Shown here: positions 13,269 through 52,114 of the stretch, piece by piece
How the letters are laid out: every line of letters begins with the position of its first letter
How positions within the stretch are numbered: the first letter of the stretch is position 1
Notes under the pieces: model-generated
The model's database searches: none
What the model was told of the DNA's origin: nothing
What the model saw: the letters and a program-made list of their open reading frames with translations, nothing else
Program-made: the position numbers and the translations under genes
Assembly: GCA_003142935.1 (NCBI GenBank)
Contig: PLOG01000085.1
Location: 59,613 to 122,638 of the forward strand
Direction of reading: 5' to 3'
Source: Acidobacteriaceae bacterium
GTDB taxonomy: Bacteria; Acidobacteriota; Terriglobia; Terriglobales; Acidobacteriaceae
Length of the DNA stretch: 63,026 bases

Positions 13269-13278
13269 GGATCGCCCC

Positions 13279-13653: not shown

Positions 13654-13656
13654 ACC

Positions 13657-30420: not shown

Positions 30421-30513
30421 GTGCACAATTCGCTGACTATAGGACTCATGCGAAGACCGCGCCAGGTCGAGAATGACGCTGAATCGGTTTTCCGCCGCGG
30501 TAGTGTACCTGCT

Positions 30514-31591: not shown

Positions 31592-32659
31592 CTAATCCAC
31601 GAGTGTAACAACACGGCTAAGATGACGAGGTGAGTCGGGATTAAGACCCTTCCGCAATCCAAGACAGCAGCCCAGCAACTGCCCCCACACAACGTAGACA
31701 ACCAGGCGAGCCAGTTCAGGCACAGCCAGCGCAAGTTCAATGGCCAGGTCGGCAGAGTTCTCGATTTCGGACGAGAGCCGATTCCCTATGGCCAGGGTGC
31801 ATCCCCCGAGACTCTTCATCTCCATCAATACCGCGCTCTCTTCCGCGTAGCCGGTTTCGGAGAGCAACGCCCCTACCAGAACCTTTTTCGACACAATGGA
31901 CATGGGCCCATGCCGAAACTCCAGCGTATGAAAGAATTGCGCATAGCTCGACGAAGACTCCATGATCTTAAGCGCGGTTTCGGACGCTATCGGGTAGAGC
32001 GGGCCCTGACCGAGAAATGCCACGTCATCAAACGACCGTTGCGCCAATTCCTCGATCCCTGGAGTATAAATGCGGAGTAGTTTTGCCAGGGAATCTGGAA
32101 GCAAGTGCAGTGCGTTCACAAACTCATCCTGTCTGGCGAAGCGCGCTGCGATATATTGAAGCGCCATCAGCATGGAGGTGAACGAAGAAGTCATCACGGT
32201 GCTCTCCTCCGTGACCGGCAATTTTAGCAATCGGGTGCTGAGTTCGGTCAGTTCGTTGCCATCGCAGGTGACTGCCAAGAACTCCACGCCTCGCAGCCTC
32301 AGGAATTCGGCCACCTGCAAGACCTCGGACGTATGCCCTGAACGGGAGATCAGAACGGGAAAGTACGCGGCCTCATCGCTCGGAAAAATCAACTTGGGAA
32401 AAAGGAGTACTTCAGAGGCCGGCACCGCCCGAGCCGGCGAGCGGGTCAATGCCGTGAATGTTGCCGCAGCGGCCTGTGACAGATAGTAGCTCGTACCGCA
32501 GCCTACGAAGATCCACTCGTGCGTAAGTGGGTCTTTGTTGCCGAACAGACTCTTCAAATCGAGTTTGTCTAATGTATCCAGGCACCGGCTCCAAACCTCG
32601 GGCTGGCTATGAATCTCGCGCAATGTAGCTGCTCCGCTTTCCATCTTGCCTATCTCCAA
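31592..32659 (-). CDS. SIS-domain sugar-phosphate isomerase/deaminase (AgaS-like)
   Basis: REIHSQPEVW, FVGCGTSYY, ISRSGHTSE, ALKIME, EFRHGP and NPDSPRHLSRVV motifs. Confidence 0.85.
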   Translation of the reverse strand: MEIGKMESGAATLREIHSQPEVWSRCLDTLDKLDLKSLFGNKDPLTHEWIFVGCGTSYYLSQAAAATFTALTRSPARAVPASEVLLFPKLIFPSDEAAYFPVLISRSGHTSEVLQVAEFLRLRGVEFLAVTCDGNELTELSTRLLKLPVTEESTVMTSSFTSMLMALQYIAARFARQDEFVNALHLLPDSLAKLLRIYTPGIEELAQRSFDDVAFLGQGPLYPIASETALKIMESSSSYAQFFHTLEFRHGPMSIVSKKVLVGALLSETGYAEESAVLMEMKSLGGCTLAIGNRLSSEIENSADLAIELALAVPELARLVVYVVWGQLLGCCLGLRKGLNPDSPRHLSRVVTLVD

Positions 32660-33220: not shown

Positions 33221-35731
33221 ATGAAATCGGCGCACTTAATATTTCCATCGATGATTATGCTTGCTTCGCAAACTCTGTGGCTTGCGAGTGGAGCGCGCGG
33301 ACAGTCCGCGCCCTCTATCCCTGGCTTGATCAGGGGAGGCAATCTCGCCATCGAAGCATTTGACGACGGCTTCTACGCCTTGCGGTCCACGGCAATTCCC
33401 GGAGATGTACTGCGCTCGGAGGTAGAAGCCGATTCCCCGGGCGGAACCCTTCGCTCCTCGCTTTATCCTCGCCATCTGAAAGCGATTTTGCCCTTTGACG
33501 GCGAGTTGGGACCTGGCCATCTGTTGACGGTTACGCATACCGGGTTACCCGGTAAACCCGATCTGGTCTGCGAGTTTCGCGTATATGAGAACCAGCCTTG
33601 GGGTGAGATCCGGGTAAGCGTGAACAACACAACTGCCGGGTCCATTGAGTTGAATGCCATCCATGTGGTCAAGAGCGATGCGGGTCCTATCGTGCAACTG
33701 AAAGGTCCTGCCTCGGCGGATCGCATTCTCTCCGACAGCTACCAGGAAGATACGCCTCAGATGAGGCTGATGGATCTCGCCGAGGCCGACCACGGCCTGC
33801 ACCGGGGGTTTGAAGACCAGCTCATCTATAACCGGCAGAGTGGGCTTAGCCTGTTCTTGGGAGCGTTGTCCGCCGACAGGTTTGTTACCGTTCTGCATCT
33901 TCGCAACTCAGAGGGACCCGATCCGCATCTGGTCTCCTACGACGCAACGGATACCGGAACCACCGAGCCGCTGGAGGACCAGAACAGGCCATACCCGCCG
34001 GCCAACGCCGTGGCGCTCCATCTGCGCGTGGCTGCCGGAGAGAGCGTCGGCTCGGAGCGGCTCATGGTCTCGATCGGCTCCGATTATCATGCGCAGCTCG
34101 AGACCTACGGCCGCGCAATTCGCACTCTCCACAAGCCGCGCGTCGATATGCCCGCCCCCATGGGCTGGTGGAGCTGGACGGCTTACTACTATCACGTAAC
34201 CGAAGATACGATGCTTACCAATGCCGCGTGGCTCAAGCAGAATCTTGCGTCGCTGGGGTATCGGTACTTTTTTGTGGATGAGGGGTACCAATACACGCGC
34301 GGGGAGTACGCTACCGCGGATGCCAAGGAATTTCCCCGGGGCATGGCCCCTGTCTGCCATCAGATTGAAAATCAGGGACTCACGTTCGGGCTGTGGGTTG
34401 CGCCGTTTCAGGTGTCGGAGCGTTCGTGGGTATATGAGCACCATCCTGAGTGGCTGGTGCGCAACCTGGCCGGGGAGCCGATTCATATCGGCAAGGTCGG
34501 CGGGCGATTCGATCAGCTCTATGCCCTGGATACAACCAATCCCGGCGCGCAGGAGTATCTGCGGTCCACTTATCGCACGTTGGTCAACGACTGGGGCGTG
34601 CGCCTGATCAAATTGGACTTTATGGATTCGACCGCGGTGGAGGGAGTTTACTACCGGCCCAATACGACGGCGTTCGAGGCGCTGCGCATCGGTTTGAAGA
34701 TCATTCGCGGGGCTGTCGGCGACGACGTGATTCTCGACAAGGACGGCAGTCCGATGCTGCCGCCGGTGGGGATCGTGAATGCCGGGCGCCTCTCGCAGGA
34801 TACCGGGCACACCTTTGAATCCACCTACGACGCTGCCATGGGCATGGCCGCCCGGTACTATATGCACCGCGAGTTCTACGTCTCGGACCCGGATGCGTTT
34901 ACCGTCTCGACGCAGGTGATTCCGGACCGGGGATGGCATGGCAACAAGCGCCCGCTCACGCTGGACGAGGCGGAGGCTTCGATCGCGGTTTCGGCAGTCT
35001 CAGGAGGCATGTTCGAGATAGGCGATGACCTGCCCGCGCTGGGCGTCTCGCCGGATCGCATGGCCCTGGTCAGGAATGCGGACCTGCTGGACATGGTCAA
35101 GCTGAGCCGCGCCTCAGTGCCCCTGGACCTGATGACATTCCGGAAGGAAGACAAGCAGCCGAGTATCTTCCTGCTGAAGGAAGACCCGCGGCAACAGATT
35201 CTCACTGTTTTCAACTGGACCGGGGAGACGCGCAGCCGCACTATCGGGCTGGATTCCCTGGGGCTCAGGGCGAACGGATCGTACACGGCGACCGATGTGC
35301 TGCGTGGCGGCGTCGTGGCGATCGAAAACGGCACGCTCGCGTTCGCTCAGCAACCAACCTCCGTGCGCATGATCAAGCTGATCGATACATCCGTCCCGGA
35401 GCCGGCTCCTCTCTTCAATGTGCGCGCGCCGTCAACGGGAAAGGCCGGCGAACCGGTCGAGTTTCATGCGGCCGCGGCCAGCGACGATGCGCCGGTTCTT
35501 GGCTATCGCTGGGAGTTTGGCGACGGCGTGAGCGCGGACGGCGCCGGCGTTTCGCATGCCTATACGCAGCCTGGGCAATACACGGTGAAAGTTGAGTCCA
35601 CGGGGCTGAACGGACGCGTGGCGCGAAACACGCTGGGCATATCCGTCACGGGCATGGTGACCACGCTCTACGACCCCGCCGCGAAGGCACGATATAGCCC
35701 GGCAAAGCAGGACTCTGGAGGGATGCGATGA
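33221..35731 (+). CDS. Exported GH36-type alpha-galactosidase / alpha-N-acetylgalactosaminidase with a C-terminal PKD domain
   Basis: PMGWWSW, FFVDEGYQ, IKLDF nucleophile motif, SDPD and PKD YRWEFGDG. Start moved to the ATG at 33221 after GAAAGGA. Confidence 0.85.
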   Translation: MKSAHLIFPSMIMLASQTLWLASGARGQSAPSIPGLIRGGNLAIEAFDDGFYALRSTAIPGDVLRSEVEADSPGGTLRSSLYPRHLKAILPFDGELGPGHLLTVTHTGLPGKPDLVCEFRVYENQPWGEIRVSVNNTTAGSIELNAIHVVKSDAGPIVQLKGPASADRILSDSYQEDTPQMRLMDLAEADHGLHRGFEDQLIYNRQSGLSLFLGALSADRFVTVLHLRNSEGPDPHLVSYDATDTGTTEPLEDQNRPYPPANAVALHLRVAAGESVGSERLMVSIGSDYHAQLETYGRAIRTLHKPRVDMPAPMGWWSWTAYYYHVTEDTMLTNAAWLKQNLASLGYRYFFVDEGYQYTRGEYATADAKEFPRGMAPVCHQIENQGLTFGLWVAPFQVSERSWVYEHHPEWLVRNLAGEPIHIGKVGGRFDQLYALDTTNPGAQEYLRSTYRTLVNDWGVRLIKLDFMDSTAVEGVYYRPNTTAFEALRIGLKIIRGAVGDDVILDKDGSPMLPPVGIVNAGRLSQDTGHTFESTYDAAMGMAARYYMHREFYVSDPDAFTVSTQVIPDRGWHGNKRPLTLDEAEASIAVSAVSGGMFEIGDDLPALGVSPDRMALVRNADLLDMVKLSRASVPLDLMTFRKEDKQPSIFLLKEDPRQQILTVFNWTGETRSRTIGLDSLGLRANGSYTATDVLRGGVVAIENGTLAFAQQPTSVRMIKLIDTSVPEPAPLFNVRAPSTGKAGEPVEFHAAAASDDAPVLGYRWEFGDGVSADGAGVSHAYTQPGQYTVKVESTGLNGRVARNTLGISVTGMVTTLYDPAAKARYSPAKQDSGGMR

Positions 35732-36948
35732 ATCGCAGAAAATTCATGGCGCTGGGCGTCACTACACTCGGATTCGGCGCTGGCAAGATGGCATCGGCAG
35801 TCAGGCCGGCGGGAGCGCCTGGCACCGGGAATGACGACCGGGCACAAGAATCCGCGGGGCTGCCGCTGGAGGCGTACGAGCCGAAGAGCATGCTTCATTT
35901 GCCCAGCCACCCTGTTTCCGGTTCCCGCTTCCCCCTCATCGATTTTCATACCCACATCACCGAAGGTGATGCGCATGGAGCCCCCGGGGCAGTCCGCTTT
36001 GAAATCAGCCCCGAGACCTGCCTTGCGGTCATGGAGCGGAGAAACATAAAGACCATGGTCGACTTGACCGGGGGTTACGGAGAGGGTCTTCGCGATGCGA
36101 TTCACAAACTCCAGGATGCTCATCCCGGCCGGTTCATCGTGTTTACAGAGCCAGCGTGGGATAAGGCCTCGGACCCCGGCTATTCGCGCTTGCAGGCGGA
36201 ACTGATCGAAAGCGCGCACCGAAGCGGCGCAAAGGGCATCAAGGTTCTGAAGACTCTGGGCCTGTTTCTGCGCGAAAAGGGAACCGGCAAGCTGATCGCG
36301 ATCGACGACCCGCGATTCGATGAAATGTGGGAGGCAGCCGGAGCGCTCAACATGCCGGTCGCGATTCACATTTCCGACCCGGAAGCATTTTTCCTGCCCA
36401 TCGACCGCTTCAACGAGCGTTGGGAGGAACTTCACGCGCATCCCGACTGGTCGTTCCATGGGCGGGACTTTCCGAGTAACCTCGCCCTCCAGGAGGCGCG
36501 CCGCAGAGTGATGCGCCGTCATCCACGCACGCAGTTCGTTTGTCTCCATGTAGCCAACGCAGAGAATCTCAAGTATGTATCGGAGTGCCTGGACGAACAC
36601 CCGAATATGCACGTGGACATAGCTGCCCGTATCGCGGAGTTAGGCCGGCAGCCCCGCGCCGCGCGCAAGTTCTTCGACAGCTATCAGGATCGAATCGTGT
36701 TCGGCACCGATGCCAGCAGCAATGCAAACACCCCGCAACAGCTTTTCGGCGATAAACTCTACCAGATCTACTTCCGCTTTCTGGAAACCGAGGATGAGTA
36801 CTTCGACTACACGCCAGCGCAGAAGCCTGCGCAGGGCCGCTGGTGCATCTACGGCATTGGGCTGCCTGAGCCGATTCTTCGCAAGGTGTATTGGGAGAAC
36901 GCCGCCCGGCTGCTTGGCCTCCCGGCAAATCCTGGAGCGGCTGCATGA
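35728..36948 (+). CDS. Tat-exported amidohydrolase (Amidohydro_2 type)
   Basis: MNRRKFM Tat motif, IDFHTH, VAIHISDP, CLHVAN and FGTD motifs. Confidence 0.85.
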   Translation: MNRRKFMALGVTTLGFGAGKMASAVRPAGAPGTGNDDRAQESAGLPLEAYEPKSMLHLPSHPVSGSRFPLIDFHTHITEGDAHGAPGAVRFEISPETCLAVMERRNIKTMVDLTGGYGEGLRDAIHKLQDAHPGRFIVFTEPAWDKASDPGYSRLQAELIESAHRSGAKGIKVLKTLGLFLREKGTGKLIAIDDPRFDEMWEAAGALNMPVAIHISDPEAFFLPIDRFNERWEELHAHPDWSFHGRDFPSNLALQEARRRVMRRHPRTQFVCLHVANAENLKYVSECLDEHPNMHVDIAARIAELGRQPRAARKFFDSYQDRIVFGTDASSNANTPQQLFGDKLYQIYFRFLETEDEYFDYTPAQKPAQGRWCIYGIGLPEPILRKVYWENAARLLGLPANPGAAA

Positions 36949-36984: not shown

Positions 36985-37045
36985 CCCTCAGGGGCTAAAG
37001 CCCGCTCTCTTTGCTACTGCTAGCGGCACGGCTGAAGCCGTGCCC
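36985..37045. repeat. REP-like unit between convergent genes
   Basis: CCCTCAGGGGCTAAAGCCC (36985-37003) plus GGCACGGCTGAAGCCGTGCCC (37025-37045). Confidence 0.75.
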
Positions 37046-37096: not shown

Positions 37097-38212
37097 TCAG
37101 CCGTTCATGCCGGGCGTGGTCCTCAGCTTCGCTTTGACTGCCGCAGGCGTCTTGGGCTTGGGAATGCCGTGTTGATGGCAATCCGCGCACTTGACCCAAT
37201 GGATGTTGTGCAGGCTGGACGCGCTGGCGTAGGTCGTGTCCATCCGCTCCACGTCGATTCCGCAGTGTGACATTTGCGGATGGCAGGTCTTGCACGACGC
37301 GCGCGTGTTCTCATTATGCCCATCGTGGCAGGAGACGCAGCTTATCCCCTCGTGCACGCCCATCGGAGTGCGATCGTCTCCCGATCCCACCTGCGGACCC
37401 CAGGCGTTGGCTGCGGCAACGGAACCTGTTTCCGGGTCGCGCGGCGCATGGCACTGGTAGCATAGAGCCTGGCGCGGGTCCTGGCTGATGGTCACCGCGC
37501 GGGCTCCGTCGTGCAGTTGCGGAATGGAAAGCGTAGCGGCGGCAAAGTGGAGAGTCTCCCGCCGGTCGTAGAAGGCCAGCGATTCTGGCACGGCCGCGCC
37601 TGCAACCGAGATCCGCGAGGCGGCCTTGGTTTCCTGTGTGCCTTCGCGATGAATCTGATGGCAGGCCATGCAGGGCATCGCAGCCTGATCGGCAAAGCCG
37701 GAGCGAATGATGCGCCATGGCCCTTTCGTGTTCAGAGGCTTGACCAGATCGCGAATAGAACCGCTGAAGTACATGCCGTGGCAGCGCAGGCAATCGTCCA
37801 TCAGCATGCGTTTGGAGTTGTGCACCGGATCGGCAAAGACCTGGCTGTAGGTAACGCTGTGCGGGCCCGCATGCCAGCTTGCATATTCGTGCTGGTGGCA
37901 GGTCTTGCAATTCTCCGCGATGGCCGGCACATCCACGTCGCGCAGGCGGATGTTCTCCGGAATCGTACCGAAGATGTGAATCCGCATGTGGCGCAGCTTG
38001 GTAGCGAGACTCGCCTCATGGCATTCCATGCAGCCCACGGTCCGGTGGGGCGCGGAATGCACCACGCTCACGCAGGTGGCCATCTCGTGACAGCTTGCGC
38101 AGCCCTGCCCGTATTGCGATGTGTAGTAGTACGACGCGCCATAAGTGCCGCCAACGGCAAGCAGAACCGCAATCCCGGCGGCGATCGCCGCAAATTTGAA
38201 AAATCGCTTCAT
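37097..38212 (-). CDS. Membrane-anchored multiheme cytochrome c, 9 CxxCH motifs
   Basis: N-terminal hydrophobic anchor; CASCH, CMECH, CKTCH, CLRCH, CMACH, CYQCH, CVSCH, CKTCH, CADCH. ATGA overlap with the GMC gene gives the start at 38212. Confidence 0.9.
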   Translation of the reverse strand: MKRFFKFAAIAAGIAVLLAVGGTYGASYYYTSQYGQGCASCHEMATCVSVVHSAPHRTVGCMECHEASLATKLRHMRIHIFGTIPENIRLRDVDVPAIAENCKTCHQHEYASWHAGPHSVTYSQVFADPVHNSKRMLMDDCLRCHGMYFSGSIRDLVKPLNTKGPWRIIRSGFADQAAMPCMACHQIHREGTQETKAASRISVAGAAVPESLAFYDRRETLHFAAATLSIPQLHDGARAVTISQDPRQALCYQCHAPRDPETGSVAAANAWGPQVGSGDDRTPMGVHEGISCVSCHDGHNENTRASCKTCHPQMSHCGIDVERMDTTYASASSLHNIHWVKCADCHQHGIPKPKTPAAVKAKLRTTPGMNG

Positions 38213-39861
38213 GACCGGAATCCCGTACCCTTCCAGTTGCGGACCAATGATTCGGAGGCCAAATACGCGATGGCCATGATGGTGAGCACCGGATTGAAGC
38301 CTCCGTTGGTTACGTGCACGCTCCCATCGATCACGAAGACGTTGTCGACATCGTGAATCTGGCAGTTGCGGTTTACCACTGAGGCTTGCGGATCGATGCC
38401 CATGCGGCAAGTGCCGGCCTGGTGTTGGCCGGCGGATACGACGGTGGGCTTGCCCGCGTTGAGGATCGTGCTCACCGCCCCCGCCTCCTTGAGCCACAGT
38501 TCCGCGCGTTGGGCCTGCACCAGGCCGATCTCGAAGGTGTGGGGATGCACGTTACCGGAAATGCGCGCCACCGGCATGCCCCACTTGTCTCTCACCGCTG
38601 GATCGAGCGTGACCCTAGCGTCGGCCGAGGGAATCGGCTGCGTCGGCCCCATCACGGCGATGTTGCGTTTGTAGAAGCTGCGCATGGATTGCTTGTGCCT
38701 CAGCCCCCATCGGGGCGTGCCGGCGGGCATCCGATCGACCATCTGAATCGGCAGCCTGATGAATTCGTTGGCCAGCATACCCCCGCCACAGAGCCCCGCA
38801 GTGCCGTGGTTGTAGTCGGCGACAGCGATGCTTGCGCCTGGACCGACATCGTCATATGTGTCGGCGTCGAAAAACCCCATGGCTCCGGTGTAGTGGTGGC
38901 CCTGCAGATTCCGGCCCACCTGGTCGTAGCGATTTCCCAACCCATTGGGAAAGAGGCGGCTTTTTGAATTCAACAGCAGGCGAGCCGATTCGATGGCGCA
39001 GGCAGAGACGATCACAATATCGGAAAGCTGCTCCTCCAAATGCCCGTTGGCGTCGTAGTAGGCTACGCCGCGTACCCGCCCGCGATCGTCGGTCAGTACT
39101 TCCCGGGCCATGCATTCGGTGCGCAGCGCGCAGTTTCCCGTGGCCAGCGCGGTGGGTATCACTGTGTTCTGCGAACCGTTTTTCGCATCCACCTCGCAAG
39201 CGAAGCCTACACACCAGCGACAGCGCATGCACGGGCCGCGGCCGTTGTAGGGGACGCTGTTGCGAAGCATGGGAATGTGAAATGGATGCAGGCCAAGACG
39301 TTTGGCGGCCGGCTCCAGGATCTGAAACTCGCGGTTCGGCGGCAGCGGAGCCATGGGCAGTTGACGCCGGCGAGGACCGAAAAAGGGACTGCCCGAGTAG
39401 TCTCCAGAGACGCCGATCTCATATTCGGCCTTTTCGTAGTAAGGCTCCAGATCGTCGTAGCCGATAGGCCAGTCTTCGAGCGAGCTCCCGGCCGGCGCTC
39501 CGTAGATTGAGCGCATGCGGAAGTCCTGGGGCATGAAGCGCCAAGCCATAGCTCCATAGCTCAGCGTTCCACCGCCCACGCAGGCGGCGTTGTTCTGGTA
39601 GCCGCCTTCGCTGGGCAGTAAAGTGCGAGGCCCGCTATGGGGATCGAACAGAACCCGGGGATTGCCTTCATCCTCCGGCCCGAAGGCGTTGCCCAGCACC
39701 GTGGTGCGCTGATTGCGCAGGTCGTCCTTGCGGCAATCGTTGGCGGTGTACCATTTGCCCCGCTCCAGCAGCACAACGCTCAGGCCTGCTGTCGCCAGTT
39801 CCTTGGCAACGATGCCTCCCGCCGCACCGGCGCCCACCACAACTGCATTCACTCGTTTCAT
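38209..39861 (-). CDS. GMC-family FAD oxidoreductase, catalytic subunit
   Basis: VVGAGAAGG, VGGGTLSYGA, Cys cluster CMRCRWCVGFAC, HQAGTCRMG and NPVLTI motifs. Confidence 0.92.
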   Translation of the reverse strand: MKRVNAVVVGAGAAGGIVAKELATAGLSVVLLERGKWYTANDCRKDDLRNQRTTVLGNAFGPEDEGNPRVLFDPHSGPRTLLPSEGGYQNNAACVGGGTLSYGAMAWRFMPQDFRMRSIYGAPAGSSLEDWPIGYDDLEPYYEKAEYEIGVSGDYSGSPFFGPRRRQLPMAPLPPNREFQILEPAAKRLGLHPFHIPMLRNSVPYNGRGPCMRCRWCVGFACEVDAKNGSQNTVIPTALATGNCALRTECMAREVLTDDRGRVRGVAYYDANGHLEEQLSDIVIVSACAIESARLLLNSKSRLFPNGLGNRYDQVGRNLQGHHYTGAMGFFDADTYDDVGPGASIAVADYNHGTAGLCGGGMLANEFIRLPIQMVDRMPAGTPRWGLRHKQSMRSFYKRNIAVMGPTQPIPSADARVTLDPAVRDKWGMPVARISGNVHPHTFEIGLVQAQRAELWLKEAGAVSTILNAGKPTVVSAGQHQAGTCRMGIDPQASVVNRNCQIHDVDNVFVIDGSVHVTNGGFNPVLTIMAIAYLASESLVRNWKGTGFRS

Positions 39862-40403
39862 CAGGCCGAGCCCTTTCTCAGGTCGTACTGCGCGCGGCCG
39901 TTCACAGGCGGCTCAGCCATGCCAAGCATGCGCCAACTCACGGCATTGCGGTTGCCGCCGTGCCGCGGCGCGCCATAGTAACCCTCAAAAGTGTGGCTGC
40001 GCACCAGATCGAAGAACTTTCGATTCTGCTTCTCAATCGCACTCGTTAATTCGGCCATCTGCGGCGCGGCCAGCGCCGCCGGCTCCTGGCCAAAGCGCTC
40101 CCGGCTCATCGCGCCGGCCTGCGCAAGGCCGTCCCGGTAGATGTCCCGATGACGCCGGTAATGGCGAGCGAGTTGCTTGTCGATGTAGGTGAGCACGCCG
40201 GCCTGCGAGGCGCTGGGAAAATCATCCTCTGGGACAATTTGATCGCAGATCGCGGTCAGGGTCCGGGCCTGGGCATCGTTCAGGAAATCCCAATTCCCAT
40301 GATTCCCCTCCTTGCAACCCACGGCGAGTGCAGCGCAGCCCATGGTTCCAGCAGCCACAAATTGCCGCCGCGTCATGCGCTTGGGCTTCTTGCTCGATGG
40401 CAT
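39861..40403 (-). CDS. Gluconate-2-dehydrogenase subunit 3-family (Tat 'hitchhiker' small subunit)
   Basis: MTRRQFVAAG Tat motif, AICDQIVPEDD.P.A...GV..YID, FFDLVRSHTFEGYY and YGGN-like HGGN...SWRMLG. TGATG coupling to the GMC gene. Confidence 0.88.
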   Translation of the reverse strand: MPSSKKPKRMTRRQFVAAGTMGCAALAVGCKEGNHGNWDFLNDAQARTLTAICDQIVPEDDFPSASQAGVLTYIDKQLARHYRRHRDIYRDGLAQAGAMSRERFGQEPAALAAPQMAELTSAIEKQNRKFFDLVRSHTFEGYYGAPRHGGNRNAVSWRMLGMAEPPVNGRAQYDLRKGSA

Positions 40404-40584
40404 AGGCAAATTCCTCAATCCGGACTCAAAGCAGAATATATCCTGCTGCCAGTACGTTTCTGCCCTGGTTCGAAACGCCGGTCCGCTGTATGCTCGGCGC
40501 GAAAGACCTCTCCGGTCTGTGTCAAAAGTCACACTCGTAGATTTTTGCATGAAGATTAGGCAGGGCTGAGAGTCACGACTGATT

Positions 40585-40609
40585 CATTTTGCCCGGAGAA
40601 GGCAAAATG
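40585..40609. promoter_or_regulatory. Perfect 9-bp inverted repeat in a divergent promoter region
   Basis: CATTTTGCC-N7-GGCAAAATG between the dehydrogenase operon and the nagB-like gene. Confidence 0.45.
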
Positions 40610-40805
40610 AGCAAGCAAGGACTCGATTGCCTCAGGTTTTCAAGCTCTGTAGCCGATGGCGCAGCGAATCGGAGCTGCGCTACACTAATACATCCTCTGG
40701 TATAAATTACCGGGCAGGCCACTCTGGCTTGCCGGTTTCCGTGCCCGCTCCAGGCGCTCGATTTTCCGGGGCCGGTGTCAAGATCGAAGGGAGTTTCAAT
40801 CCGTC

Positions 40806-41600
40806 GTGGAAATCAATCAAGTGAAGAGATTTCAAATAGGAAGCATGAATGTGGAGGTTCATTCCGACAGCAAGGCTGCCGGTGCCGCCGCCGCCCGGTC
40901 GGCCGCGGACGCCCTCTGGAAACTGGCCGAAACCCGCGCTTACTTCGGTGTCATCTTTGCCACGGGAGTTTCGCAGATGCAGACGCTGGATGCTCTTACC
41001 AGCATCGAAGGCCTTCCCTGGGATAAAATCCGCGGATTCCATATGGATGAGTACATCGGGATTTCAGCCGATCACCCTGCATCCTTCCGCTGGTACCTGC
41101 GCGAGCGGCTCACGCGGAAAGTCTCGATGAATGAGTTCTATGAGATCGATGGAAGTGCGCCAGATCCCGAAAAGACGGCGGACGAGTATTCCGCACTACT
41201 GCGCGCCGCCGATCCGCAGCTTTGCCTGCTGGGTATTGGCGAGAACGGCCATCTGGCCTTCAATGACCCCGGTGTGGCCGACTTCTCCGATCCGCGCGAC
41301 GCCAAAATCGTCTATCTGGATGCTGACTGCCGCCGCCAGCAGGTAGCTGAAGGCTGGTTTGCAACCTTCGATGAGGTAGCCGACGCTGCCATCACGCTCA
41401 CCATCCCCGCTCTCCTCCGCGTACCCAAGCTGATTGTCTCCGTTCCTGGCCATCGCAAAGCGGCCATTATTCGGCGCGTTCTGTCAGAACCTTTATCCAC
41501 TGACTGCCCCGCCACCATACTGCGCACCCACCCGGACACCACCCTCTATCTCGACTTGGAATCCGCGGCCGGCCTCGAGGGTGTGCTCGTCTCTCAATAG
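40806..41600 (+). CDS. nagB: Glucosamine-6-phosphate deaminase family protein
   Basis: IFATGVSQ, FHMDEYIG, LGIGENGHLAFNDP and AITLTIP motifs. Confidence 0.8.
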   Translation: MEINQVKRFQIGSMNVEVHSDSKAAGAAAARSAADALWKLAETRAYFGVIFATGVSQMQTLDALTSIEGLPWDKIRGFHMDEYIGISADHPASFRWYLRERLTRKVSMNEFYEIDGSAPDPEKTADEYSALLRAADPQLCLLGIGENGHLAFNDPGVADFSDPRDAKIVYLDADCRRQQVAEGWFATFDEVADAAITLTIPALLRVPKLIVSVPGHRKAAIIRRVLSEPLSTDCPATILRTHPDTTLYLDLESAAGLEGVLVSQ

Positions 41601-41663
41601 GTGATTCCAGCGCGATGCAGCGGCGGATCAGTGCCGCAAACAAAGCCCGTAGAAAGGGAATTT

Positions 41664-42572
41664 ATGCTTTGGATTGGCATATGGACGGCGGGAGTCTTGC
41701 TGACGGGAGCAGCAGCGATCGCCACCGCGCAGACGGCCCCTCCCAAATTGATTGACGTACACGAACACTTCGACGGTGAGCCTGGTGTTTTGCAGCAGAT
41801 GCTTATCAAGCTGCAGGCCGCCGACGGCATTGGCATCCTCCTGGTCACGCAGAAGGGTTTCCCTGAAGCCTCGAAGTTCATCCACGAACATCCTGACCGT
41901 TTCATCGGCTTCGGCGACATCAAGCTCGACGATCCCAATGCCCTCCAGGAGATTGACCAATTTCATCAGGCTGGCTTCCGCGGTCTGGGAGAGATTACTT
42001 CCTCCGAGAAAAACTACGACGATCCTTCGTATTGGCCAATCTACGACCGGGCTGCGAAGTACCACATGATTCTCCTCTTTCATACCGGCATTGTCCTCCG
42101 CCGGGACCCCGACCAGCCGGAGAATGTGAGCTTCGACAGGATGCGCGCAACGCGCCTTGACTTGATCGCGCGTCATTGGCCCAAGATGATCGTCATCGGG
42201 GCGCACCTCGGCAATCCGGACTACGCGGAAGCAGCTGAAATTGCGCGGTGGAGCCCGAATCTCTACTTTGACCTTTCCGGATCGAGCCTCATCAAGATGT
42301 CCGGCGACTATGGATTCTTCCGCTCGATTTTCTGGTGGAGCGGAATGGTGAGCCCGCACACCCCGCCCGGAGGCCCGGACGCCTTTGAAAAGCTTGTCTT
42401 CGGCTCCGACATCTTCCAGGGCGAACTGGGGGAATTCGACGCAGGCCAGAGGCGCTATCACGAGATGCTGGACGCTTGCCGCGTTCCCCAGAACGTGCAG
42501 GACATGATCTTCTCCGGAACCATGTGGCGCATTCTCCAGGAACAGCAGCAGGCTGCTGGGCTCCGGCGTTAG
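41664..42572 (+). CDS. Exported amidohydrolase (Amidohydro_2 type)
   Basis: Signal peptide, IDVHEH, LFHTG, IGAHLGNP and LVFGSD motifs. Start moved to the ATG at 41664 after AAAGGGA. Confidence 0.8.
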   Translation: MLWIGIWTAGVLLTGAAAIATAQTAPPKLIDVHEHFDGEPGVLQQMLIKLQAADGIGILLVTQKGFPEASKFIHEHPDRFIGFGDIKLDDPNALQEIDQFHQAGFRGLGEITSSEKNYDDPSYWPIYDRAAKYHMILLFHTGIVLRRDPDQPENVSFDRMRATRLDLIARHWPKMIVIGAHLGNPDYAEAAEIARWSPNLYFDLSGSSLIKMSGDYGFFRSIFWWSGMVSPHTPPGGPDAFEKLVFGSDIFQGELGEFDAGQRRYHEMLDACRVPQNVQDMIFSGTMWRILQEQQQAAGLRR

Positions 42573-42595
42573 ATCCACGTCGAAGTCCGCGTCGC

Positions 42596-43528
42596 TCAAC
42601 AACTGGAGTATTTCTTGCACAGCGCCTGAATATCGCCAACCAGTTTCGGCACCCCGGTCGAGGGTGGCAGGCTGCCAGGGTAGTTGGGTTCATATTCCGC
42701 CGACACAAATCCCTGGTGCCCGGCTTGCGCAAAGATCTGCCATACGCGGTCCATATCCACCGGACCGCGATCGTAAAAATGGTCGCGAATATGAATATTG
42801 GTGGCGTATGGAATGCACGCGGCAATCTGCGCGTAGGCGTCTTGAGTTGGCGTGGAGATGAAGTTTGTAATATCCAGGTTGATTCCGGCATACGGCGAAT
42901 TAACCCGCTGCATGATCTCGACACAAAGGTCCGCGTTCTGCGTGACGCCTTCGTGGTCCTCAACCCCAAGCGTAATGCCCTTTTGGCCGGAATAGTCGCA
43001 TGCGGCCTTCATCGCCTCAACCACCCAATCGACAGCATCTTTCAGCCTCGCGCCCTCCGGCAGCACACCCGCAAAGATCCTCAGATGCGACGCTCCAAGT
43101 TCATCCGTCACATCGACCCACTTCTCGATTTGCTTCACGCTATCCGCGCGCTTTTGAGCGTCGGCCTGCACCATGCTCACGCCGCATGCGCACCCTGAGA
43201 AAGCCACGGCATGCTTGTAGGCCAAATGACGCAGGCTGTGAAGATACTCCGGATCGGTGGACTTCAGGTAATACACCGTCATATCGACGCCGGCCAGTCG
43301 CAACTCTACTGCCTTGAGGATGAAATCTTCCATCGTCATTGCACCCTGCCTGAGGGCCTCATTGTATGAGTAGGCACAGCATCCGGGAAGCAGTCTCGCC
43401 CATTTGGATTTGATCGCGTTCGCATCCGATTGCGCCCCCGCGGCAGCTTGCAGCCCCACAGCATCTATACCGGCTCCTGCAACGGCGGCTAGTCCAACAG
43501 TCTTCACAAACTGACGGCGATTCACCAT
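42596..43528 (-). CDS. Tat-exported sugar phosphate isomerase/epimerase-family (AP endonuclease 2 / xylose isomerase-like TIM barrel) protein
   Basis: MVNRRQFVK Tat motif; metal ligands LGVEDH, NLDITN, NIHIRD and SAEYE. Confidence 0.85.
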   Translation of the reverse strand: MVNRRQFVKTVGLAAVAGAGIDAVGLQAAAGAQSDANAIKSKWARLLPGCCAYSYNEALRQGAMTMEDFILKAVELRLAGVDMTVYYLKSTDPEYLHSLRHLAYKHAVAFSGCACGVSMVQADAQKRADSVKQIEKWVDVTDELGASHLRIFAGVLPEGARLKDAVDWVVEAMKAACDYSGQKGITLGVEDHEGVTQNADLCVEIMQRVNSPYAGINLDITNFISTPTQDAYAQIAACIPYATNIHIRDHFYDRGPVDMDRVWQIFAQAGHQGFVSAEYEPNYPGSLPPSTGVPKLVGDIQALCKKYSSC

Positions 43529-43680
43529 GGGATGCACCTTCTCTCCTGAGTTACGCGATGCTATGGAACACGCAGTTCACAGCATGCTCGGCGTCAGCCT
43601 CGCAAACAGACCAACCTAACACCCATTCCTGCCGTCGTCAACAAAAAGCCCTCCGCGCTCGTCGGCCGCCTCACTTTCCC

Positions 43681-45723
43681 TCACTTCGCCCGGATGGCGG
43701 CTCCGTTCGGCATTATGAACGCAATGGGCCACTGCTCCTGGCCCTGAGCTACTAACGTGGACCAGTTCAGAACCGGCGCGGATTCCTGTTTCAGAATTGA
43801 GACTTCCGGATCGACTTCCTGGAATCGAACCGCCAGGCTGTACGCTTCACCGGTTGCGGCCAGTGTCAGCGGCTCCCGTGGATTCAGACTGCGAATGAAC
43901 AGTTGGGCGATCTTGAGATCATCCATCATCTGAAGAAAGTAGGGCCGCCCGGTCAGCAAGGAATTATAGACATAACCGGCCAGTACGCTGTCGAGGGGAT
44001 TGGCATACGCTTCATCAAAGCCATCCGGCGCTGAAGTGCCGGATGAATCGACGCGAAACTTCATGCTGGTTTCTCCCAATCCGCGAAAATCGAATGAGAA
44101 TACTTCGTAGCCGTCGTTCAAAAGCTTCGATATCTGTGGCCAATCCTCTCGGGACGCTTTGCCGTGAAGGCTAAACCAAAGGATGCCTCCCTTGGGGTGG
44201 CTGCCTTCACTGTAAAAGTGAAGAAGAGGCATCTCCAGATACCTGCTGTGATGAAGCACATACCGGTCGATATGCACTGTTCCAATCGTGGTGCTTCCAA
44301 CAGCTTGCCAACGCACTTCCATTGGCAGCGAAGAGCCGGCATACCGGCTGACGCTCCAGGAGGCAATGTTTGGATCCTGTTCGCTCCGGTCGAGCTCGGC
44401 CAATGTTGTCTGATTGCGATGCGAAGCGTCCATGGAGTACGCGGCGATGAATTGAAGAAGCGTACGCCCCTCCGGATAATCGACCGACACCTGCCCGCTC
44501 TTTGTCACGCGAAGGTCGGCGTCGCTAAACGGAGTTACAGGCGGAAGGCCGTGGCGAACCGGCATCCGATTGAAACGATCGAGAAAGCTCAACGCCGCTT
44601 CCTGGTTTTTCAACGAATACTCGTGCCGGTTGTAACTCTCGGCGAAATCGATTCGGTCGCCGTGTCCAAAACGCCTGTAGAAGCTGCTGACTTCCTCGTA
44701 GGACTTATGAGCACCCTGCACCGGAAAGAAATCGAGACTGGCGGTTGCCACCATTACCGCGCGCGGATACATCGCCAATAACATGCCCGCATGATCCACC
44801 CCCTTCGAGATGAGCCCGAAGAGATCCTGCTCCGGATCGCTGTCTGAATCGGCAAAGATTCGGTTTTCCACGCGCATGGGAAGCGCCGTAATGTAACAGG
44901 AGGGAATAATGACCTTGATCCTCTCATCGAGCGCGCCGATCAGCGCCGTCTGGAAACCGCCGCCGCTCGTGCCCGTGATATTGATCCTTGCGCCGTCCAC
45001 GTCCGGGCGAGTGAGCAGATAATCCACGGCGCGCACGCCATCCCACACTTCCCACCGGGCCAGATTGGCGCCGGCGAGATAGGCCAGGTTTCCCATCACG
45101 GCATGCTCGCCACAGATCAGGTTGTAACGGCTTTTCTTTGCCTTTGCATCCCAGAACTGGCTTCTTTCGCCTTGCCCCACCGGATCCCAACTGATAACAA
45201 GGTACCCGCGCAGGGCCAGCCTCTCGCAAAGAGCTTGGTAATGATTTTTCCCGTCTGCCGAGTGTCCCGCTGGGACCAGAATGGCCGGATGTAACTTGTC
45301 GCCATTCTCAGGCACATACACAAGTGCAGTTACATAGAGCCCAGGAAGGCTTTGATAGATCAACTTTTCGATATGAAATCCAGCGCCTGAAACTCGGCCC
45401 GTAATCTCAGCGTGCAGGTCTGTCTTCTCCGTTGGAAGCCCACCGATCATCTCGAGCAGCGATCGTTTAAGCTCCGCGCGCAACTGCAGAAGTTCGCTCT
45501 CGCTCTTGACACGCGACCAGCGCTCCCGGCGCAGTTCATCCTCATCCCATGCAAGCGCGGTTTGATAGAGCAGATACGGCGTAATCTGCGGACCTTCTGC
45601 TTCCGCGGGAGAAAGCACGCGAAATGCCTCAGCCGGAGGCGCATCCTGTCCCGTAACTGGCGTTGCGCACATGACCGCCATAGCAAGAACGCAAACCAGC
45701 CGCACACCGGTCGAGCCGCCCAT
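43681..45723 (-). CDS. Exported alpha/beta-hydrolase, acetyl xylan esterase (AXE1/CE7)-like
   Basis: Signal peptide, LVPAGH, WDPVGQGER, nucleophile elbow TGTSGGG, and a second hydrolase-like domain (FDFRGLGET). Confidence 0.8.
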   Translation of the reverse strand: MGGSTGVRLVCVLAMAVMCATPVTGQDAPPAEAFRVLSPAEAEGPQITPYLLYQTALAWDEDELRRERWSRVKSESELLQLRAELKRSLLEMIGGLPTEKTDLHAEITGRVSGAGFHIEKLIYQSLPGLYVTALVYVPENGDKLHPAILVPAGHSADGKNHYQALCERLALRGYLVISWDPVGQGERSQFWDAKAKKSRYNLICGEHAVMGNLAYLAGANLARWEVWDGVRAVDYLLTRPDVDGARINITGTSGGGFQTALIGALDERIKVIIPSCYITALPMRVENRIFADSDSDPEQDLFGLISKGVDHAGMLLAMYPRAVMVATASLDFFPVQGAHKSYEEVSSFYRRFGHGDRIDFAESYNRHEYSLKNQEAALSFLDRFNRMPVRHGLPPVTPFSDADLRVTKSGQVSVDYPEGRTLLQFIAAYSMDASHRNQTTLAELDRSEQDPNIASWSVSRYAGSSLPMEVRWQAVGSTTIGTVHIDRYVLHHSRYLEMPLLHFYSEGSHPKGGILWFSLHGKASREDWPQISKLLNDGYEVFSFDFRGLGETSMKFRVDSSGTSAPDGFDEAYANPLDSVLAGYVYNSLLTGRPYFLQMMDDLKIAQLFIRSLNPREPLTLAATGEAYSLAVRFQEVDPEVSILKQESAPVLNWSTLVAQGQEQWPIAFIMPNGAAIRAK

Positions 45724-45770
45724 CAGAACCTCCGCTCACAGCTGCCACAACACCGCCAATGCTTCCACCA

Positions 45771-46478
45771 CTATTTATCCCCTGCCAGCGTCAGCACCCC
45801 GAATCTCTTTGGTTCATGAAAAGTATTGCTCATGGGAACCTTCCAGGCGATCAATTTCCGATGTTCGGGCGGTCCTTGGCTGCGGAACAGGTTCGCGCGA
45901 AAGGTCCTGCCCAGCGCTGGAGGGCGCGTATCCAAAGCTGCAAACGGAATTCGCATGGCGCCATACCATATCTTTGCCGTCGAATCGATCCGAGCAGCTA
46001 CCTGAATTCCGGAGTTCCACAGCCATCCCACCGCAGGATCCGGGAGATCGAGATTAATATCGAGATCGATCCACTCCCGCTGCGGCGAAACTTCGAACTC
46101 CTTGTACCTGCGAACGTTGTTAAAATCGGAACCAATAAACAGCTCTGCGACATCCCAATTCCAAAGTCCATAGGTCTCTTCCGCCGTATTTGGCGAGGGC
46201 TTTAGATAGAGCTCCTCGTAGGGACATTGAAACAGAAGATAGAGATTATTCTTTGTCCATCGGGAACTTACCTGCGTTCTATGCGCGGGGAGAACGTGGC
46301 CCCAATTGTCTACTTCCGCATACACCGAAGGCGTCCCCTGCCAGAATGCTGACTGGGGGTCCGTGTCCAACTCAACATCCTGAGCCGCATAGGCACTCCT
46401 GAATGCGCCGCGATCGCCGGCGCTGGCATGGAGCGCTCCGCTCAAGAAAAGCAGGCATGTAGCGAAGAATCCTCTCAC
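45771..46478 (-). CDS. CBM9-like (DOMON-type) carbohydrate-binding protein, exported
   Basis: RWTKNNLYLLF, LWNWDVAELFI, YKEFEVSP, WYGAMRIPF, RANLFR and FHEP..FG motifs. GTG start at 46478 after GAGGA. Confidence 0.75.
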   Translation of the reverse strand: MRGFFATCLLFLSGALHASAGDRGAFRSAYAAQDVELDTDPQSAFWQGTPSVYAEVDNWGHVLPAHRTQVSSRWTKNNLYLLFQCPYEELYLKPSPNTAEETYGLWNWDVAELFIGSDFNNVRRYKEFEVSPQREWIDLDINLDLPDPAVGWLWNSGIQVAARIDSTAKIWYGAMRIPFAALDTRPPALGRTFRANLFRSQGPPEHRKLIAWKVPMSNTFHEPKRFGVLTLAGDK

Positions 46479-46540
46479 CGCATCTTCCTCCACAAAAAAC
46501 CAGGCGTCCGCTCGAAGGTCGCCTGCAACACCTACCGCTC

Positions 46541-47869
46541 TCACAGATGCGGCGCCCAGCCCTTCTCGTACTCGCGTGACCACATCTTCATCGCTTGAGC
46601 GTCGTTCTGAATCGTCCCGTCGCCGGGGTCAAGCTGCAACTCCCGGTTCAGCTCCCATGCGATATTGGAGAGTTGAAGCATTGTGACGACGATGTTTCCT
46701 TGTGAGATAGGAGCGTGGAGCTTCTCTCCCTTGCGGATTGCCGCGATAAAGTTGGCGAAGTGGGCAACCGTTGGGGCGTCTCCGTCGAACTTGTCATAGA
46801 ACGGCGTCGTGTCGTCGTCCTTGAACACGCCCGTCCTGGTTCCCTTGAGATCGTAGACATCGTAGCCGCTCCCGCCATCGCCATAAATAAATACCGAGCC
46901 CTCGGTCCCCATGACGGTCAGCCCCGAAGTGTGGTCGTAGTACTTCATCCCGTTGCATGATTTGCCTTCCCAGGAAATCATCTTATCGCCGTAATCGAAG
47001 CTGGTTACCAGTGTGTCATAAAACTGCCAGTCATCCTTGAACTGGTATCTTCCGCCCGACGCCGTAACGCTCTTCGGATAATCCACTTCCAGCGCCCAGC
47101 GGCATAAATCGATGCTATGTGTACCGTTGTTCAGTGTCTCGCCCGTACCCCAGTGTTTAAACCAGTGCCAGTTATAGGGATGAATATTATCCATATATGG
47201 CCTCCGTGGCGCAGGTCCCTGCCACAGATCCCAATCGAGCTCGGCCGGCACGGGCGCTTCCTTGCCGATGCCGATTGACTTTCTCGTGTTGCCGTACCAG
47301 CCTTTGGCGAAATAGGCCCTGCCGATGAGTCCGTTGTGTATCTTATCGATGGCTTCCATTGTGCGCAGGCACGATCGCTGCTGTGTGCCCTGCTGCACGT
47401 GCTTTTGGTACTTCTGCTGAGCCTGCACCAACATCGCGCCCTCGGCAGGGTTATGGCTGCATGGCTTTTCAACGTAAACGTGCTTGCCCGCCTCGAGGGC
47501 AGCGATCGCAAGCGGCGTGTGCCAGTGATCCGGAGTGGCGATCGTGACGGCATCCACGTCCTTTTGCTGAAGGACGGAGCGAAAGTCCTTGTCGCTCGCG
47601 GGAGCATATCCCAGTTCATGTTCGGCGATACCGGCAAACTTGGCCAGAATCGTGCTGTCCACATCGCACACATGCGAAACACGGGCGGCATCCTTATTCG
47701 CCATGAGTGCAGCAAGATGGGCATAGCCGCGCCAACGCAGGCCCATGATAGCAAAGTTCAGGCGATCATTCGAACCGAGAATCTGGCCGTAGCTCTTTGC
47801 GGTGGAACCGATAGCCAAACCTGCCGCCCCTGCGGCAAGCGTATCAAGGAATTCGCGTCGATTAATCAA
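46541..47869 (-). CDS. Tat-exported Gfo/Idh/MocA-family oxidoreductase
   Basis: INRREFL Tat motif, SNDRLNFAIMG, ATPDHWH, VYVEKP, LDWDLWQGPAP and NGTHSID motifs. TTG start at 47869. Confidence 0.9.
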   Translation of the reverse strand: MINRREFLDTLAAGAAGLAIGSTAKSYGQILGSNDRLNFAIMGLRWRGYAHLAALMANKDAARVSHVCDVDSTILAKFAGIAEHELGYAPASDKDFRSVLQQKDVDAVTIATPDHWHTPLAIAALEAGKHVYVEKPCSHNPAEGAMLVQAQQKYQKHVQQGTQQRSCLRTMEAIDKIHNGLIGRAYFAKGWYGNTRKSIGIGKEAPVPAELDWDLWQGPAPRRPYMDNIHPYNWHWFKHWGTGETLNNGTHSIDLCRWALEVDYPKSVTASGGRYQFKDDWQFYDTLVTSFDYGDKMISWEGKSCNGMKYYDHTSGLTVMGTEGSVFIYGDGGSGYDVYDLKGTRTGVFKDDDTTPFYDKFDGDAPTVAHFANFIAAIRKGEKLHAPISQGNIVVTMLQLSNIAWELNRELQLDPGDGTIQNDAQAMKMWSREYEKGWAPHL

Positions 47870-48133
47870 CTTGTCTCTCCATCGGATCGCTCGATCTTCC
47901 TCTTCTTTGCAAGGTAACGACGAGAAATCCGTTGCGGCACCAAGTATATACAACAAATCCGTTACTGTGCTTGAGAACTCGGCGCACGCGGTTTGCCTCA
48001 TTGACGCCCCGTCTTCTTGACGCTCTCTTGATCCAGGTGCAACGATCTATTTGGATTCGGAACCGTCAAATGAATTGCGCCGGGATTCGGCCACTCACTA
48101 AGGGCGTTATGCAAGAAGGGAAAGGCGCAAACC

Positions 48134-52016: not shown

Positions 52017-52114
<98 letters not shown>

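Follow-up and report, generated by a model that had tools for sequence, protein, structure and literature searches.

Flavoprotein-cytochrome sugar dehydrogenases are, to our knowledge, known mainly from ubiquinone-using Proteobacteria, always with a triheme subunit. They form the basis of direct-electron-transfer biosensors. The FAD-type glucoside 3-dehydrogenase of Agrobacterium, Halomonas and Flavobacterium is reported to consist of a catalytic GMC/Fe-S subunit, a small subunit exported by twin-arginine translocation (Tat) and a separate cytochrome c. In enzymes of the FAD-dependent glucose dehydrogenase (FADGDH) type, the folded flavoprotein is exported by way of the Tat small subunit, and electrons reach a triheme cytochrome through a 3Fe-4S cluster bound by Cys212, Cys218 and Cys222 (PMC6719666). 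In the AL/BT pathway of Alistipes and Bacteroides, a 3-keto-glycoside is first formed by a Tat-exported Gfo/Idh/MocA protein (GFO) that binds NAD tightly; a TIM (triosephosphate isomerase) barrel then removes the aglycone by elimination, and the product is hydrated by a DUF1080 enzyme (Nasseri et al., bioRxiv 10.1101/2024.03.25.586180). We analysed a stretch of 63,026 nucleotides from a Terracidiphilus-like Acidobacteriaceae bacterium (contig PLOG01000085.1, positions 59,613 to 122,638), hereafter the window, in which genes resembling both kinds of system lie side by side. Its most interesting element is a conserved flavoprotein dehydrogenase with an NrfH-like nonaheme subunit, encoded by three adjoining genes that we call the trio, or Module A. 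The best reading of the trio, drawn from its sequence, is an FAD-glucose/fructose-dehydrogenase-type complex in which an NrfH-like anchored nonaheme cytochrome would take the place of the usual triheme subunit. The genes around it belong to a second set, Module B. Quite probably the region brings together, in this genome only, two conserved modules that are independent of each other, and is not one pathway.

Genes were identified by Pfam, NCBIfam and PDB sequence searches of the window proteins, with leaders taken from the translations. The trio lies on the reverse strand and comprises a small subunit of 181 residues (39861-40406; PF13618 Gluconate_2-dh3, E 5.9e-25), a GMC flavoprotein of 550 residues (38209-39861; GMC_oxred_N/C, PF00732 and PF05199) and a c-type cytochrome of 371 residues (37097-38212) with nine CxxCH motifs and an N-terminal hydrophobic helix. 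The three genes are translationally coupled: the stop codon of the small-subunit gene overlaps the GMC start in TGATG, and the GMC stop overlaps the cytochrome start in ATGA. The small-subunit leader, TRRQFVAAG...AVGC, combines a Tat motif with a possible lipobox, and the protein is the only PF13618 member encoded in the genome. The GMC protein has no signal peptide of its own and opens directly with its GxGxxG fold. The original prediction, made from the letters of the window, had listed the genes of both modules; every one of them is present, and the nine CxxCH motifs, the Tat leaders and the overlapping start and stop codons that it described are all seen. Long upstream extensions of four reading frames, those of the cytochrome (466 residues), the small subunit (229 residues), the CBM9-like protein and probably the GFO of Module B, are spurious; we judge them not to be real because orthologues begin at shorter starts.

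The best PDB match of the GMC protein is the alpha subunit of Burkholderia FAD-glucose dehydrogenase (6a2u_B, E 6.6e-54), to which it aligns over its full length, as it does to fructose dehydrogenase (7w2j_A, E 2.7e-42). These nearest solved relatives bear out the proposal that the trio is a periplasmic flavoprotein sugar dehydrogenase linked to the respiratory chain. The catalytic histidine (GQHQAGT) and asparagine (GGFNP) are conserved throughout the GMC clade. Four cysteines in one loop (CMRCRWCVGFAC, C-x2-C-x2-C-x4-C, approximately residues 211-222) are kept by 13 of the 14 members of the clade; the loop lines up with that of Cys212/213/218/222 in FADGDH, but the spacing differs and Fe-S ligation is putative. 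At the position of the covalent-FAD His105 we find serine in the window protein and Ser, Thr, Ala or Asn across the clade; a neighbouring clade of acidobacterial GMC paralogues retains the histidine. In the trio, FAD is predicted to be bound non-covalently. The glucose-contacting Asn474/Asn475 of FADGDH are replaced by Gly/Gln. The clade is discrete: its members are at least 57 % identical to one another and no more than 43 % identical to the nearest other acidobacterial GMC+PF13618 pairs, beside which no multiheme gene lies. GMC paralogues that do belong to the clade (57-72 % identity) and lack an adjoining nine-heme cytochrome occur at L160 (G653:C109), L161 (G663:C6) and L162 (G663:C8). Since those genomes carry a complete trio elsewhere, the nine-heme cytochrome may be shared with these paralogues.

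The sequence of the third subunit marks it as a membrane-anchored nonaheme protein, predicted to be NrfH-like over its first ~110 residues, and not a triheme class-I cytochrome. All nine CxxCH motifs are invariant in 14 homologues. The N-terminal hydrophobic helix leads into the first heme site (MKRFFKFAAIAAGIAVLLAV...GCASCHEM), of which C38, C41, H42 and M44 are invariant in the same homologues; the motif itself, CASCHEM (CxxCHxM), follows the pattern GCA[SN]CHEM across them. Residues 15-108 align to the NrfH quinol dehydrogenase 2j7a_C with a weak profile E of 0.033. Counted along this alignment, GCA[SN]CHEM falls on Cys43-x-x-Cys46-His47-x-Met49 of NrfH, whose Met49 we take to be the methionine ligand at the quinone-site heme. 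An invariant Lys72 follows heme 2; Lys82 of NrfH lies in an alignment gap, and its Asp89 corresponds to the invariant His75. Against the TIGR03153 NrfH model the cytochrome reaches E 7.6e-8 and 32.5 bits, under the cut-off of 134.2. The NrfH likeness fails the family cut-offs, a point that counts against our interpretation, and because of these scores we liken the cytochrome to NrfH in its working without placing it in the NrfH family. The seven hemes beyond the NrfH-like part give weak c7-, c554- and DmsE-like matches, with Cytochrome_C7 among the models. With 328 of 1.84 billion cluster representatives at E<=1e-3, many of them fragments, this is a small family, and the searchable literature yielded no account of a GMC dehydrogenase that has a multiheme subunit like NrfH.

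If the trio works like Burkholderia FADGDH, its small Tat subunit would carry the folded FAD/Fe-S catalytic subunit across the membrane, and the enzyme would oxidise a sugar or sugar derivative. Electrons would then pass from the substrate to FAD, to the Cys-ligated Fe-S cluster, through the nine c-hemes and on to menaquinone, with the cytochrome running in the quinone-reducing direction. The quinone of Acidobacteriaceae is menaquinone (MK-8), and the cytochrome probably reduces it. The nitrifier cytochrome cM552, of the NrfH/NapC/NirT/CymA family, is an example that probably runs towards quinone reduction. Nine hemes nevertheless exceed the needs of a simple quinone-reductase link. The homologues come mostly from bog, fen, palsa and peatland metagenomes, and NrfH-family proteins normally oxidise menaquinol, as the name of PDB entry 2j7a indicates. 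These points would suit a cytochrome that delivers electrons to Fe(III), peat humics or other acceptors in the periplasm or outside the cell, or one that draws them from menaquinol with the flavoprotein as a reductase. We regard either arrangement as unlikely: the trio is self-contained, with no conserved outer-membrane conduit or extra cytochrome gene in the 80 loci described below; the CxxCHxM heme beside a membrane helix is the NrfH quinone-site signature; and enzymes of the GMC/FADGDH type are dehydrogenases.

We scanned GTDB species genomes for the pattern of the cytochrome, using the alignment of its homologues. More than 540 stretches encode a relative, and the best 80 loci were examined with 10-kb flanks. 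All of them belong to Acidobacteriaceae or Terracidiphilus, many from the peat and bog metagenomes named above. The cytochrome is present in 80/80, the GMC protein in 77/80 and the small subunit in 74/80, in constant gene order, and the misses lie mostly at contig ends. In a phylum-wide sample of 400 genomes, the cytochrome is sporadic: it was found in two of four same-genus genomes, in none of 29 same-family genomes outside the genus and in six genomes of five other Acidobacteriota families, at 45-53 % identity. All six of the latter have a GMC gene (61-68 % identity) directly upstream of the cytochrome gene; this check covered nine loci, namely these six, the window and two same-genus genomes. 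Short contigs with trio genes that carry the source label Rhodoferax (L036 and protein P0106) show 71-83 % identity to acidobacterial genes and are likely mis-binned.

The trio is an autonomous, mobile cassette. According to neighbour clustering, about 35 of the 80 loci share one home order, DUF92-GH31-propeller-trio-TlyA-NAD kinase-histidine kinase-sigma54 regulator-ABC-F, where GH denotes a glycoside hydrolase family; the remaining loci present about 30 different contexts. The genome studied here has retained the whole home block on another contig, C176 (L159:7379-13162), at 62-88 % identity, with the trio missing and only ~180 bp between the propeller gene and TlyA. This empty site documents relocation, or loss and regain, of the trio. 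Two copies in different contexts occur at L015 and L053 (JBEKAS010000017 and JBEKAS010000054) and, in genome G862, on contigs C44 and C52. A search of the trio's flanks in the window for direct or inverted repeats, tRNA, integrase or mobility genes returned only short repeats at chance level and a hairpin between the amidohydrolase and cytochrome genes; the nearest tRNA (Pro) lies at 52038. This GC-rich hairpin, GGCACGGC-TGAA-GCCGTGCC, at 37023-37044, stands inside the 148-bp gap between the two convergent genes and is likely a bidirectional terminator.

The propeller of the home site is a YVTN beta-propeller lipoprotein of 503 residues (representative L073:4569-6080), whose gene lies directly upstream of the trio and is co-directional with it in 28 of the 80 loci. 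It has no Pfam match, and its NCBIfam matches are weak (PQQ-associated propeller, hydrazine synthase beta). We considered it as an obligatory fourth subunit and rejected this, because the orthologue in the present genome stays at the home site without the trio.

The contexts of the trio give divergent hints as to its substrate. A GH31 gene precedes it at the home site. In L153 (L153:6848-9336; genome G653, from another Acidobacteriota family), an SMP-30/gluconolactonase gene and then a TIM barrel of 260 residues follow the cytochrome gene on the same strand; it is the sole context that points specifically to C1 oxidation of an aldose. In L157, genes for a GH2 glucosaminidase-like protein and a GlcNAc 2-epimerase flank the trio. 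GH116 genes occur in L001, L037 and L053, and the last of these loci, from genome G821, also has SIS, PfkB and Amidohydro_2 genes. In both genomes whose trio lies in the glycan locus described here (window 31592-32659 and 40806-41600; L053:5091-7214), it is divergent from a gene of the sugar-phosphate deaminase/isomerase type, NagB-like in the window and SIS with PfkB in G821. A link of the trio to the catabolism of amino sugars or Amadori compounds is possible.

It is conceivable, and we hold it as a tentative alternative, that the trio is a periplasmic aldose 1-dehydrogenase. The lactone would be hydrolysed by a neighbouring exported lactonase (the Tat Amidohydro_2 protein here, SMP-30 in L153), in an incomplete sugar oxidation like that of acetic acid bacteria. 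Its closest solved relative is a FAD-glucose dehydrogenase with the same catalytic His and Asn, the gluconolactonase gene of L153 lies directly downstream of the cytochrome gene, and GH31 stands before the trio at the home site. In addition, two of the five PF04909 (Amidohydro_2) genes of the genome flank the trio, and PF04909/COG3618 presumably includes sugar lactonases; a gene of this family also lies directly after the trio-clade GMC paralogue in L160. However, just one of the 80 trio loci has an Amidohydro_2 gene, as many as chance would give, and in relatives the 35728 amidohydrolase is part of Module B. The Gly/Gln replacement of Asn474/Asn475 and the low identity to FADGDH also speak against this alternative. 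Between the two carbon positions, C1 oxidation is slightly favoured over C3, because of the lactonase context and the similarity to glucose dehydrogenase.

Module B is a separately conserved exported set, made up of a reverse-strand operon for a GFO, a CBM9-like protein, an esterase and a TIM barrel (42596-48001) and of a convergent gene for a Tat amidohydrolase. The GFO (46541-48001; GFO_IDH_MocA and C2/C3 domains) has the Tat leader NRREFLDTL; its orthologues align from residue 40-45 on, and the true start is probably ~40 codons past that of the reading frame. The CBM9-like protein (45771-46478; PF06452, E 6e-7) has a Sec leader, and its orthologues align from residue 36 of the long reading frame. 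The esterase is an alpha/beta-hydrolase of 680 residues (43681-45723) with AXE1/Peptidase_S9/glucuronoyl-esterase-like Pfam matches and a Sec leader; its best PDB match is 6goc_A (E 3.4e-10). The TIM barrel (42596-43537; PF01261) is xylose-isomerase-like and carries the Tat leader NRRQFVKTVG. The amidohydrolase (35728-36948, forward strand; PF04909, E 1e-22) has the Tat leader NRRKFMALG.

In five genomes of the same genus (L170, L174, L175, L176 and L178), the genes for GFO, CBM9-like protein and esterase, usually joined by that for the TIM barrel, stay together at 70-85 % identity with no trio between them, the esterase being co-conserved with GFO and CBM9 at 72-77 %. Outside the genus, orthologues of the TIM barrel are rare (15 of 400 family genomes); a Gfo/Idh/MocA gene lies near the TIM orthologue in 8 of 12 loci examined. 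Orthologues of the 35728 amidohydrolase are found in 17 of 150 same-genus genomes, at 54-62 % identity.

The GFO best matches the PDB entries 8tdf/8tdh (E 7e-25), followed by DgpA (3e-16) and levoglucosan dehydrogenase 6a3f (2e-12), the last two of which we take to be C3-oxidising enzymes. Entries 8tdf/8tdh were deposited beside 8tdi, a "glucuronide-3-dehydrogenase", and we infer that they are enzymes of the AL3/BT3 type. The best NCBIfam match is the glycoside 3-dehydrogenase model NF058561 (BT_2158_fam; E 1.3e-41), which it matches with 142.7 bits where 750 are required, and just in the N-terminal 268 positions. When 16 TIM orthologues are used as a profile, the first match is 4ovx, an uncharacterised planctomycete barrel (E 2e-22). 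Next come the C-glycoside deglycosidase subunits 7xrf/7bvr at ~1e-9, a weak match limited to an N-terminal stretch, and DgpC1; AL1/BT1 lyases were not identifiable among the PDB matches of this profile. The predicted likeness of GFO and TIM barrel to 3-keto-glycoside enzymes is upheld by these matches, C-glycoside deglycosidases being the best characterised relatives of the TIM profile.

The Tat GFO is a candidate glycoside 3-dehydrogenase and the Tat TIM barrel a candidate 3-keto-glycoside lyase or isomerase. Because the closest likeness of these two proteins is to the dehydrogenase and the lyase of the 3-keto pathway, Module B probably acts on an esterified glycoside, which it would cleave or remodel without need of Module A. 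With the first two protein types of the AL/BT pathway present, plus an esterase and a CBM9-like protein, it is a reasonable candidate for a periplasmic 3-keto-glycoside oxidation-elimination system. The CBM9-like protein would be a candidate redox partner of the GFO if it bound heme. Its AlphaFold model (predicted local distance difference test, pLDDT, of 74) retrieves CBM9 1i82_A in Foldseek at E 3e-11 and then the heme-b gamma subunits of ethylbenzene dehydrogenase, EbdC (2ivf_C, 4e-6), and of nitrite oxidoreductase, NxrC (7b04_C, 5e-5). True CBM9 modules rank first and there is no invariant lysine in the protein; we consider a heme-b (DOMON/EbdC-like) role improbable.

The original prediction had joined all these genes into a single module, and the data do not support this claim. 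Among the 80 trio loci, tblastn found no orthologue of the TIM barrel, the esterase, the CBM9-like protein, the NagB-like protein or the second amidohydrolase, and for the GFO only a 26 %-identical paralogue in two loci. The window neighbours of the trio are not co-conserved with it, and we reject the single-module idea because no neighbour orthologues occur in these loci. In one of the five same-genus genomes with Module B the trio is ~100 kb distant, and in the other four it is on other contigs. Of five genomes with the TIM orthologue that were tested, four (G106, G114, G284 and G369, each 98-100 % complete) have no nine-heme cytochrome; in G106 and G284 a GFO orthologue adjoins the TIM orthologue. 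Genomes G263 and G320 have the trio and no TIM orthologue. The modules dissociate both ways, because Module B genes occur without the cytochrome and the trio without the TIM barrel. Each half of the predicted mechanism survives separately, not as one module.

The junction at which the trio sits in the window is uninterrupted in relatives. In L170, L175 and L181, the amidohydrolase and TIM genes are convergent and 70-100 bp apart, or 73-100 bp when counted between homology blocks. In the window this distance is about 5.6-5.7 kb and is filled by the trio, a NagB-like gene and a second amidohydrolase gene. A rearrangement in this genome would have put these genes between the amidohydrolase and the TIM barrel. 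The NagB-like protein (40806-41600, forward strand; PF01182) is cytoplasmic, has no signal peptide and matches the NCBIfam nagB models at E 1e-30 to 1e-32, under their cut-offs; in the relative L170 its orthologue (72 %) lies elsewhere in the locus. The second Amidohydro_2 protein (41601-42572, forward strand; PF04909, E 2.4e-13) is exported through a Sec-type leader. Both genes stand upstream of the trio and are divergent from it.

Several observations weigh against so clean a separation. The trio is directly flanked by paralogous GFO and TIM genes, partly for cytoplasmic proteins and with a major facilitator superfamily (MFS) transporter gene, in L007, L070, L072 and L074. The orders are trio-GFO-TIM-GFO in L072, GFO-TIM-trio and then MFS-GFO-TIM in L070, and trio-MFS-GFO-TIM in L074; the distant L153 reads trio-gluconolactonase-TIM. 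Searching the trio flanks and the genome as background with home-made hidden Markov models, we obtained densities 2.6 times that of the genome for GFO, 1.7 times for TIM and about equal for Amidohydro_2. In a second genome, G821 (L053/L172), the trio is ~3 kb from an orthologous amidohydrolase, beside SIS and PfkB genes. A loose, facultative link of the trio with the GFO/TIM enzyme class is kept alive by these observations. The enrichment of GFO and TIM genes near trios itself rests on few related loci and was judged not convincing.

On the model of the original prediction, the whole region would be one system, in which the trio, as an FAD-type glycoside 3-dehydrogenase, makes periplasmic 3-keto-glycosides, the TIM barrel cleaves them, the GFO processes the products and electrons reach respiration via the cytochrome. 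The window does bring all parts within 8 kb, the GFO and TIM barrel resemble 3-keto-pathway enzymes, and the trio of L070, L072, L074 and L007 is co-directional with the adjoining GFO/TIM paralogues, and that of L153 with a TIM barrel. Moreover, periplasmic GFOs with tightly bound NAD may need cytochrome-type partners for re-oxidation (Nasseri et al., bioRxiv 10.1101/2024.03.25.586180). We nonetheless consider one system improbable. Besides the missing orthologues, the empty home site, the uninterrupted junction and the two-way dissociation, adjacency to GFO/TIM is seen in ~5 of 86 loci, near the expectation for a genome that has, like the present one, 19 GFO and 18 TIM genes. The nearest solved relatives of the GMC protein oxidise C1 and C5, none being a 3-dehydrogenase, and the gluconolactonase gene after the cytochrome gene in L153 points to C1.

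We offer a more ambitious proposal as a long shot. The trio could represent, in peat Acidobacteriota, a new class of respiratory sugar dehydrogenase, whose NrfH-anchored nine-heme wire would couple the periplasmic oxidation of free sugars, of amino sugars or of the C3 position of glycosides directly to menaquinone or extracellular acceptors. Beside GFO/TIM genes, as here and in L070, L072 and L074, it might serve as the missing electron sink for the non-hydrolytic cleavage of glycans by oxidation-elimination.

Apart from the two modules, the wider window is a glycan and amino-sugar locus, as seen from Pfam matches of its proteins. It encodes an acidobacterial TonB-dependent receptor, DUF5107-TPR, CBM4_9 and BNR/sortilin proteins, a DeoR regulator, a SIS deaminase-like protein, a GH36-like protein and a GH38. 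A DUF1080 gene had been reported as lacking from the window, and a PF06439 search agrees; genome-wide, the same search gives four matches, all off the contig of the window, on C108, C73 and C139 (two on C139). The best of them shares contig C108 with three xylose-isomerase-like TIM barrels and a Gfo/Idh/MocA gene (6437-7042, 13190-13663, 28787-29503, 30481-30855 and 39105-39671). As a candidate site of a 3-keto-glycoside pathway, this contig is therefore better furnished than the window.

The preferred reading, two independent modules brought together in one genome, has several consequences. Co-location in this genome hinted at a pathway that comparative data do not support, which calls for caution, and the movement of the trio among chromosomal sites is useful for inferring function by association. 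Should our interpretation of the trio be correct, the complex illustrates the way in which a soil bacterium that relies on menaquinone connects the oxidation of sugars in the periplasm to its respiratory chain, and bioelectrochemistry gains a chain of hemes that is longer by nature. Module B adds Acidobacteriota to the groups that are candidates for non-hydrolytic cleavage of glycosides.

Compared with known systems, Module B is like AL/BT1-3, DgpA/DgpBC and CarA/CarBC in its co-conserved Tat GFO and Tat TIM barrel. It differs from AL/BT1-3 in that its locus has no DUF1080 partner and has an extra esterase and a CBM9/DOMON-like protein. Module A has the same general architecture as that reported for the FAD-type glucoside 3-dehydrogenase. 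It is closest to Burkholderia cepacia FADGDH (gamma-alpha-beta), Gluconobacter fructose dehydrogenase and gluconate 2-dehydrogenase. With these it has in common the GMC subunit with a Cys-rich loop at the 3Fe-4S position, the Tat PF13618 small subunit that pairs with a leaderless catalytic subunit (hitch-hiker export), and a set of three translationally coupled genes, the third of which encodes a c-type cytochrome. In contrast to FADGDH, its GMC protein lacks the covalent-FAD His105, has the motif CxxCxxCxxxxC instead of CCxxxxCxxxC and places Gly-Gln where the glucose-contacting Asn-Asn would be. The hosts of the three enzymes use ubiquinone, whereas the host of the trio uses menaquinone, and their triheme class-I cytochrome c is matched here by an anchored nine-heme NrfH-like protein of 371 residues. 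This cytochrome resembles NrfH, NapC, NirT and CymA in its N-terminal transmembrane helix, the CxxCHxM heme that follows immediately, the second CxxCH and the Lys72 after heme 2. NrfH, NapC and NirT are, however, tetraheme proteins with a reductase as partner, while the cytochrome of the trio has nine hemes and is partnered with a flavoprotein dehydrogenase.

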